Positions 15,462 through 15,534 of a stretch of 56,793 nt of DNA are shown piece after piece. Position 1 is the first letter of the stretch. Every line of letters begins with the position of its first letter. The position numbers and the translations under genes are program-made. The stretch lies in the IMG/VR virus record IMGVR_UViG_3300048839_000639, positions 1 to 56,793 of that record. One strand, 5' to 3'. Source of the DNA: a virus (Duplodnaviria > Caudoviricetes). The notes under the pieces were generated by a model. That model searched no databases and had not been told where the DNA came from. It saw only the letters and a list, made by a program, of their open reading frames with translations.

Positions 15462-15534
15462 TGCGGGGTGGAGCAGTGGTTAGCTTGTCAGGGTAACTTC
15501 CTGAAGGTCGCGGGTTCGAATCCCGCCCCCGCTA
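15462..15534 (+). tRNA. tRNA with initiator-tRNA body but non-canonical anticodon loop (GT-AAC-TT)
   Basis: Acceptor GCGGGG/CCCCGC with 1:72 mismatch, D arm GAGC/GCTT, anticodon stem TCAGG/CCTGA, T arm GCGGG-TTCGAAT-CCCGC; no encoded CCA. Confidence 0.85.

Follow-up and report, generated by a model that had tools for sequence, protein, structure and literature searches.

An initiator-derived tRNA with a valine anticodon in the genome of a temperate-looking tailed phage

The IMG/VR virus record IMGVR_UViG_3300048839_000639 is a linear sequence of 56,793 bp with a G+C content of about 0.62, and the whole record, here called the window, was analysed. It is a tailed phage, temperate-looking, and the CheckV completeness estimate of about 64% implies that perhaps a third of the phage genome lies outside the record. 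The sole tRNA gene of the record, at 15462-15534 on the plus strand, is the subject of this report. It sits in a rightward block, downstream of tail-fibre-like genes that include a 627-aa open reading frame (ORF) at 12772-14655 with relatives of the Laminin_G_3 type, and it fills a 118-bp gap between two ORFs of a compact genome. The upstream ORF (15215-15451, plus strand, 78 aa) starts at GTG, with GGAGG at a spacing of 8, and ends 10 nt before the tRNA. The downstream ORF (15570-15773, plus strand, 67 aa) starts at ATG (MSEL...), 35 nt after the tRNA, and has no Shine-Dalgarno (SD) sequence. Neither has an assigned function, and neither gave a match in Pfam, PHROG or Atlas. A 6-bp hairpin (TGCCGG/CCGGCA) read from the sequence at 15440-15457 (plus strand) spans the stop codon of the 78-aa ORF, ends 4 nt before the tRNA and is a possible processing or boundary element. 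A promoter scan found no promoter near the tRNA.

ARAGORN calls the gene tRNA-Val(aac), and Infernal with the Rfam model RF00005 scores it at 52.6 bits (gathering score 29 bits; E 1.8e-8 when the whole window is searched), the match covering all 71 model positions (1-71). When the gene is parsed segment by segment, the acceptor stem has a U1.U72 mismatch followed by six Watson-Crick pairs (G2-G7); the D stem consists of G10.U25, A11:U24, G12:C23 and C13:G22; and all five pairs of the anticodon stem are Watson-Crick (U27:A43, C28:G42, A29:U41, G30:C40, G31:C39). The variable loop is AGGUC, the five pairs of the T stem are all of the G:C type, the T loop is UUCGAAU and the discriminator is A73. 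All 20 stem pairs are thus intact, and U8, A14, G18G19, U33 and the T loop are retained. The CCA end is not encoded, TAT following directly after A73. The minimum free energy (MFE) structure of ViennaRNA is a cloverleaf in which G32 pairs with U38 and leaves a 5-nt loop; because its z score against shuffles is only -1.96, the fold is claimed on the covariance-model score and not on energy.

What sets this gene apart is its anticodon loop (15493-15499, plus strand), which reads GUAACUU (G32 U33 A34 A35 C36 U37 U38), with the anticodon AAC at 15495-15497, in place of the CUCAUAA loop and CAU anticodon of an initiator. A first-pass annotation, made from the sequence alone, had reported this replacement on a body with initiator hallmarks (unpaired 1:72, the G2-G7 acceptor, A11:U24, AGGUC and A73) and intact stems. 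The segment parsing agrees on both points, and the loops of relatives bear out the first.

For comparison, ARAGORN predicted 215 distinct tRNAs in the loci that we fetched, the phage tRNA included, and the bodies were compared over 66 positions with the loop masked. The phage tRNA is identical to tRNAs of the Met/initiator type at 54-59 of the 66 positions and to true valine elongators at 40-41, and its top matches are all of the Met/initiator type. Five tRNAs from IMG/VR (L002-L006) have an identical D arm and anticodon stem; all five carry CAU, in the loop CUCAUAA in four cases and UUCAUAU in one. G32, A34 and a pyrimidine at position 37, which the first-pass annotation had picked out as atypical (the last as U37), each occur in just 4 of the 215 tRNAs, the phage tRNA itself counted. 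The loop differs from the initiator consensus at 5 of its 7 positions, while the body differs from its nearest relatives at 7-8 of 66 with no pair broken; the figure of 7 refers to L124, whose anticodon is UAU, and that of 8 to the nearest CAU-bearing tRNAs, L002 and L006, all of which are relatives and not ancestors. The focus of change on the loop gives a one-sided Fisher p of 0.0009-0.0015. In other words, the earlier argument that the changes are concentrated in the loop, unlike random decay, holds, with none of the 20 pairs lost. The observation is confirmed as real and not a product of chance: this is an initiator-derived tRNA with a different loop that carries the valine anticodon AAC.

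A search of a plasmid collection returned 236 records that match the tRNA, the best among the matches listed having 80-82% identity and including Azospirillum and a Hyphomicrobiales record. The commonest organism names among the plasmid matches are Azospirillum (29), Priestia (17), Ensifer (16), Sphingobium (14) and Rhizobium (13). These matches on plasmids and chromids, listed with no annotated feature, are presumably tRNA-fMet genes. Judged by its sequence, the tRNA body is of a G+C-rich type and closest to alphaproteobacterial sequences.

Compared with bacterial tRNA-fMet in general, including the copies with CAU that phages carry, the phage tRNA is alike in the unpaired 1:72, the G2-G7 acceptor, A11:U24, AGGUC, A73 and the body identity given above. 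It is unlike them in having AAC and not CAU, G32, U37 and U38 for C32, A37 and A38, and A29:U41 for G29:C41. Because AAC replaces CAU, its identity for methionyl-tRNA synthetase (MetRS) is lost. The determinants of valyl-tRNA synthetase (ValRS), according to the accessible part of a review, are A35, C36 and A73 as major elements and G20 and G45 as minor ones; here A35, C36, A73 and G45 are present and position 20 is U in our numbering. Those of the formyltransferase, in the part of a review available, are the 1-72 mismatch and the 11:24 pair, and both are present in the phage tRNA.

The reading that we favour, tentatively and as one that may well prove wrong, is that of an anticodon-shifted valine initiator, that is, a phage copy of tRNA-fMet whose loop would have been rebuilt under selection while the body was kept, and which would read GUU. 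The stronger statement, that this is a working valine-charged initiator which starts some proteins at GUU, with U37 and U38 re-tuned and with its client genes in the absent part of the genome or at positions 20585 and 44983, seems doubtful to us. In such a system the tRNA would be excised from the rightward transcript and, since no CCA is encoded, CCA would be added after transcription. A35, C36 and A73 would make it a substrate of the host ValRS and not of MetRS, and U1.U72, G2:C71/C3:G70 and A11:U24 would allow the host formyltransferase to act and would keep the tRNA off EF-Tu. The valine-charged tRNA would then enter the P site with IF2 and pair with GUU, U37 possibly remaining available for pairing with an A at -1. 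At tandem sites of the form SD-GUU-UUG-AAY, initiation by the phage tRNA and by the host initiator could differ by a single codon. Editing of A34 to inosine is considered unlikely here, since the loop that TadA requires is that of Arg-ACG. A small inversion or hairpin flip was rejected as the source of the loop, as the reverse complement of CTCATAA differs from the observed loop.

A valine initiator of this kind has been built in the laboratory. The engineered E. coli i-tRNA(AAC) of the Jaschke laboratory starts only at GUU, with valine or formylvaline, according to the available text of the two preprints (bioRxiv 10.1101/2021.05.25.445580 and 10.64898/2025.12.21.695813). The phage tRNA resembles that tRNA, so far as the available text describes it, in joining an initiator body to an AAC anticodon, and differs in being altered also at positions 32, 37 and 38. 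The anticodon alone was reportedly changed in the engineered tRNA and the remaining loop kept. It comes, in the same available text, with a GUU-start reporter, whereas no GUU-start gene was found in the phage window. Our literature search found engineered non-AUG initiators and no natural one encoded by a phage. In nature, a tRNA of one identity can gain the anticodon of another, a process known as alloacceptor anticodon shift or tRNA gene remolding. To our knowledge, the tRNAs for which this has been described are elongators, mostly from organelles and eukaryotes; the phage tRNA is unlike them in that its body is that of an initiator and three further loop positions are changed.

Is there any sign of the same process on initiator scaffolds elsewhere? 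Scans for initiator-type arms with an anticodon other than CAU yielded 29 loci, 26 from metagenomes and 3 from IMG/VR. Their loops are CUCACAA in 18 loci, UUCGAUU in 3 and UUCACUG in 2, with CUCAGAA, CUCAGAG, CUCAAAA, CUUAAAA, UUCAAGG and CUCUAAA in one locus each; the anticodon AAC occurs in none of the 29. CAC is found in 20 of them, only some of which read as having an intact acceptor stem, and the predominance of NAC (valine-type) anticodons is weak evidence because CAC lies one transition from CAU. Eight metagenome contigs (L209, L212, L215-L217, L221, L222 and L231) carry nearly the same CAC tRNA, in which the 5' acceptor strand is not paired with the 3' strand; despite being called a tRNA by ARAGORN, this copy may be a widespread fragment or an att-type remnant. 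A scan of species genomes was swamped by tRNA-His, tRNA-Arg and tRNA-Lys, and 9 of the 121 matches listed (from at least 120 loci) are initiator-like, among them L111, with the loop UUUACAA, the anticodon UAC and C1.A72.

Also from the genome scan, the array at L223:892-1275 holds near-identical Met(CAU)/Val(CAC) twins on an initiator-like scaffold with U1:A72. They look, from their sequences, like a clean example of duplication followed by anticodon shift and would thus show the remolding process on a scaffold like that of the phage tRNA. At L124:6266-6472, another locus of that scan, in a metagenome-assembled genome (MAG) of Gemmatimonadales, a tRNA-Met(CAU) stands in tandem with an initiator-type UAU tRNA that has U1.U72 and no CCA, and whose 3' part (32 nt, from the last two stem bases through A73) is identical to that of the phage tRNA. 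An IMG/VR record of 31% G+C has at L233:5206-5280 the loop CUCUAAA, with the amber-reading anticodon CUA and A1.A72. Two further loops carry U37: UUCGAUU, with CGA and U37 U38, in three metagenome contigs (for example L211:8619-8694), and UUCACUG, with CAC and U37 G38, in two IMG/VR records (for example L234:999-1074). Because these two rebuilt initiator-type tRNAs account for 2 of the 3 other tRNAs with a pyrimidine at 37 among the 215, U37 seems to accompany changes of anticodon on this scaffold rather than to be a random defect. At 13 further loci that carry a rebuilt tRNA of the initiator type, a crude SD-centred test, which has little power, gave no signal.

Several lines of evidence weigh against a valine initiator at work, and they are gathered here. 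The first concerns the anticodon arm itself. In E. coli tRNAfMet, according to the accessible part of the source, C32-A38, A37 and G29-C41 shape an initiator-specific anticodon arm, and positions 32, 37, 38 and 29:41 are all altered in the phage tRNA. The three G:C pairs at 29-31:39-41 that mark initiators are represented by two G:C pairs and A29:U41, a stem that the CAU-bearing L002-L006 likewise have. That G32 and U37 may be compatible with ValRS and with P-site binding is an assumption of the valine-initiator reading.

The second line concerns the client genes. Curated starts of 70 genes comprise 59 ATG, 8 GTG and 3 TTG, and none needs GTT. The 20 late genes from terS to the tail, about 13 of which have a recognisable SD, all have canonical starts (GTG in genes 34720 and 38468, ATG in the others). 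In no real gene of the window is the first canonical start preceded by a long stretch that looks coding. Where a codon 4-10 nt behind an SD opens a long frame of high G+C at third codon positions (GC3), near the 5' end of that frame, ATG is the commonest, counted 17 times, and GTT does not occur. A complete list of the GTT-opened frames of the window contains no convincing one. Across the 7.3 kb of gaps, GTT preceded by an SD (5 of 106) is no more frequent than the control codons GTC (7 of 124) and ATT (5 of 103). The complement of the whole loop, AAGUUAC, has its only 7/7 match in the tRNA gene, and its 6/7 matches do not lie at starts. GTT stands directly before a start in 2 of the 70 genes, not above chance (p 0.19); both are among the three TTG starts, a post hoc oddity. 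No Fmt, deformylase or tRNA enzyme was found with Pfam in 50 early, replication, accessory, terS and terL ORFs, a set that does not cover the virion ORFs beyond terL.

Some individual GTT codons were considered as starts and rejected. GTT 15543 is in frame with the ORF downstream of the tRNA, which starts MSEL; its single relative, P0242, which has 76% identity and lies on contigs of at most 912 bp, is called from MSDL, a call that supports ATG weakly because gene callers pick ATG either way. GTT 22737, in the portal region, belongs to a GTTTTG that is part of a 41-bp repeat resembling a terminator; the gene there really starts at ATG 22773. GTT 30690 and 30699 fall in a tail-chaperone G/GT overlap, with the slippery site CCCTTTA in phase, and GTT 25627 lies within the SD spacer of ATG 25638.

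Among 166 strong SD motifs, two have a GTT at good spacing and no ATG or GTG at a workable distance. Candidate A (20570-20710, plus strand) lies just upstream of terS and consists of AGGAGG (20570-20575), 9 nt, GTT at 20585, an in-frame TTG at 20588 and AAT, opening an Arg-rich frame of 41 or 40 codons. The spacing from the SD is 9 for GTT and 12 for TTG, so that GTT is the better placed and TTG a legitimate start; from the sequence, the choice between the two is ambiguous. The AGGAGG is the strongest SD in the area, the frame contains an (ARSAGA) repeat with strongly genome-like codon usage, and an overlapping, out-of-frame ATG frame of 62 codons begins 2 nt after the SD core. No relatives of candidate A were found. 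Candidate B (44708-44983, minus strand) has AGGAG, 5 nt, GTT (44983-44981), an in-frame TTG (44980-44978) and AAC, and encodes 91 or 90 aa. An exhaustive HMMER search found six relatives, and because the closest, P0243 (72%), begins M-N-I-I-Q, with M-N lining up with TTG-AAC, the start of candidate B is more likely TTG. Neither peptide had an informative match in the fetched loci or the phage collection.

In the visible 56.8 kb, then, the system-level prediction of a GUU initiator fails, save at one or two ambiguous sites. The features of a start reassignment are present as regards an initiator body with a non-CAU anticodon, and cognate GUU-start genes are not evident in the record, at its estimated completeness. 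The earlier suggestion of a re-specified initiator reading GUU therefore stands as biochemically plausible, by the ValRS and formyltransferase determinants and the engineered i-tRNA(AAC), and falls short in that we found no gene in the window that would need a GUU start. Because no gene in the 56.8 kb demonstrably begins with GUU, the tRNA may serve genes in the absent part of the genome, may act only at the two GUU-UUG sites, or may be an orphan. The tRNA is striking by itself, and the system that should support it is out of view.

The third line is that the phage tRNA is a singleton among the scans made. The first-pass annotation had proposed a search for the same loop in other phages, and five tRNA-pattern scans of IMG/VR and two metagenome scans, from which the phage's own record was possibly excluded, turned up no second GUAACUU loop. 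The five CAU tRNAs were all that came out of pattern scans for the loop, or for the body whatever its loop, and single-protein scans with the neighbouring 627-aa and 242-aa proteins found no sister phages. Relatives of the terminase were found in IMG/VR at 80 loci, with a large-subunit (TerL) identity of at most 60%; 78 of the 80 have no tRNA in their flanks, and for that reason the tRNA is not a stable feature of the wider phage group. One locus, L027, has a tRNA-Met(CAU) with U1.U72 and shares only TerL with this phage. The best TerL match among 401 genomes is 53% (the class of G001), and the best among cultured phages are Rhizobium phages at 52%. The closest terminase in a large protein set, P0121, has 92% TerL identity and is on a 2.2-kb contig.

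The explanation that best survives beside the valine initiator, possible though improbable on balance, is an orphan or recently disabled gene: an inherited initiator-type tRNA, either with CAU or re-coded and once used, that now has no job and whose loop holds disabling or left-over changes. The lack of any GUU-start client in the 56.8 kb, the tRNA-less flanks of the 78 terminase loci and the low share of GTT among valine codons (125 of 1062) are as this explanation would have them, and G32, U37 and the G32-U38 pair make a loop unlike that of almost all working tRNAs. Several of the metagenomic look-alikes with a changed anticodon, moreover, have broken 5' acceptor strands, which suggests that such copies decay. 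Neutral decay, however, is not the pattern seen here, where the loop has changed at most of its positions (p about 0.001) and neither a stem pair nor a base of a tertiary contact has been lost. The gene also occupies its short inter-ORF gap in a compact genome, and the loop is not random: it has a clean valine anticodon, keeps U33 and has a U37 that recurs in other rebuilt initiator-type loops.

An RNA that is shaped like a tRNA and does not decode seems to us unlikely. It could be a processing signal for RNase P or RNase Z, or a decoy or sponge for something that binds the acceptor end or elbow of an initiator, such as formyltransferase, IF2 or a tRNA-fMet nuclease. The conserved body with a loop free to differ suits such a role, as does the G32-U38 pair of the MFE structure, which leaves a poor shape for decoding, and so does the position of the gene, 10 nt behind one ORF and 35 nt ahead of another that lacks an SD. 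A processing signal, however, needs the acceptor and T arms only, yet the D stem, anticodon stem and variable loop have been kept as well, and no gene for a nuclease, an antitoxin or a tRNA-binding protein lies nearby. No earlier example of a tRNA-fMet decoy is known to us, and our literature search listed none.

The first-pass annotation had pointed out that anticodon nucleases target tRNA-fMet and had thought of an uncleavable decoy. The nucleases exist: in the accessible parts of the sources, VapC toxins that cleave tRNA-fMet are reported from several bacterial groups, including the alphaproteobacterium Bosea. The same material describes these homologues as cutting in the anticodon arm with specificity for sequence and stem-loop structure. 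Because 5 of 7 loop bases are replaced here, the anticodon included, the phage tRNA would be a poor mimic of the VapC target, and we found nothing that supports the decoy. Some phage tRNAs are mutated in the anticodon loop close to where nucleases cut, a difference proposed to let them evade host anticodon nucleases, and phages are said generally to avoid encoding tRNA-fMet where VapC-LT2 targets it, according to the available portion of van den Berg et al. (eLife 2023, PMC10264068). The present tRNA is like those in that its differences from the host type are concentrated in the anticodon loop; as far as that portion goes, they keep the anticodon and hence their decoding job, whereas the phage tRNA differs in its anticodon from all the tRNAs that share its body. 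For a role resting on shape only, as a processing signal or an acceptor-end sponge, we found no positive evidence, and it seems unlikely too.

An ordinary elongator tRNA-Val(AAC) that supplies GUU for codon compensation would fit the ARAGORN type, the presence of A35, C36 and A73, and the use of GTT for 27-40% of valine codons in a few genes of the adjoining lower-G+C island (16062-19121). It is nonetheless very improbable, as the features of such an elongator, namely a paired 1:72, a purine at 37 and a Val-like body, are all missing, and GTT makes up 125 of the 1062 valine codons and 0.8% of all codons. An unpaired 1:72 end, as known from E. coli tRNAfMet, disfavours EF-Tu. Weakest of all, to the point of being scarcely credible, is an attachment-site remnant, in which a piece of host tRNA-fMet is kept as attP or at a prophage junction: the phage does have a tyrosine integrase and a large serine recombinase, and initiator-type tRNA fragments with point changes do occur in metagenomes, but the gene extends over its full length, its 5' half matching too, and lies inside phage genes about 24 kb from both recombinase genes (39195-42773), and both its completeness and this distance disfavour a remnant. 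The loop would usually be the core of such a crossover, and this one has no counterpart among the tRNAs of 8 IMG/VR scans (5 of them tRNA-pattern scans), 2 metagenome scans or the genome-scan matches listed.

The rest of the record may be described briefly. On the minus strand at 15770-18502, a leftward block of lower G+C adjoins the tRNA and encodes an HTH_17 protein, an N6_Mtase-like ORF that matches only positions 21-96 of the 311 in its profile, a Peptidase_C26/GATase and an Amidoligase_2; by analogy, this gene set is reminiscent of nucleotide or DNA-modification cassettes. Within it, two ORFs that lie in different frames, 15770-16246 and 16062-16949, have 185 nt in common. A 108-aa ORF at 6330-6656 (minus strand) matches the Pfam family STIV_B116-like (E 1.6e-10) and fits an AcrIII-1/DUF1874-like gene.

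The virion module runs rightward and tightly packed from terS (20750-21310, plus strand) and terL (21252-22685, plus strand) to about 38.9 kb. An exact 41-bp repeat at 22710-22750 and 25558-25598 (plus strand), consisting of a G+C hairpin (GCGCACCAAA...TTTGGTGCGC) and a T run, follows terL in one copy and the ORF 25257-25517 in the other, and looks like a reused terminator or attenuator within the late operon. A pair of tail-assembly chaperones (30292-30965, plus strand) lies just upstream of an 806-aa ORF of tape-measure size; its -1 frame, which lacks a start codon, stays open from 30585 onwards, CCCTTTA at 30627-30633 is in X XXY YYZ phase, and the arrangement fits a programmed frameshift of the G/GT kind. 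Two unlike recombinases stand close together on the minus strand beyond the virion module, namely the large serine recombinase of 492 aa (39195-40673) and the tyrosine integrase of 320 aa (41811-42773). The other phage genes include a RuvB/AAA-like ATPase, a helicase, a DnaC-like loader and DNA methyltransferases.

On the prevailing view, bacteria choose their start codons with one initiator tRNA only, which carries CAU, and the present gene bears on this view in two ways. As a caution, such a tRNA is present here and GUU-start genes are not evident, so that presence alone is no proof of use. If the valine-initiator reading is true, a phage would have a natural initiator with AAC, the very anticodon that engineers chose for orthogonal initiation at GUU, in which case a virus can have a start codon of its own. 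Genes that start at GUU would then be hidden from annotation pipelines, and the phage would gain a translational switch.

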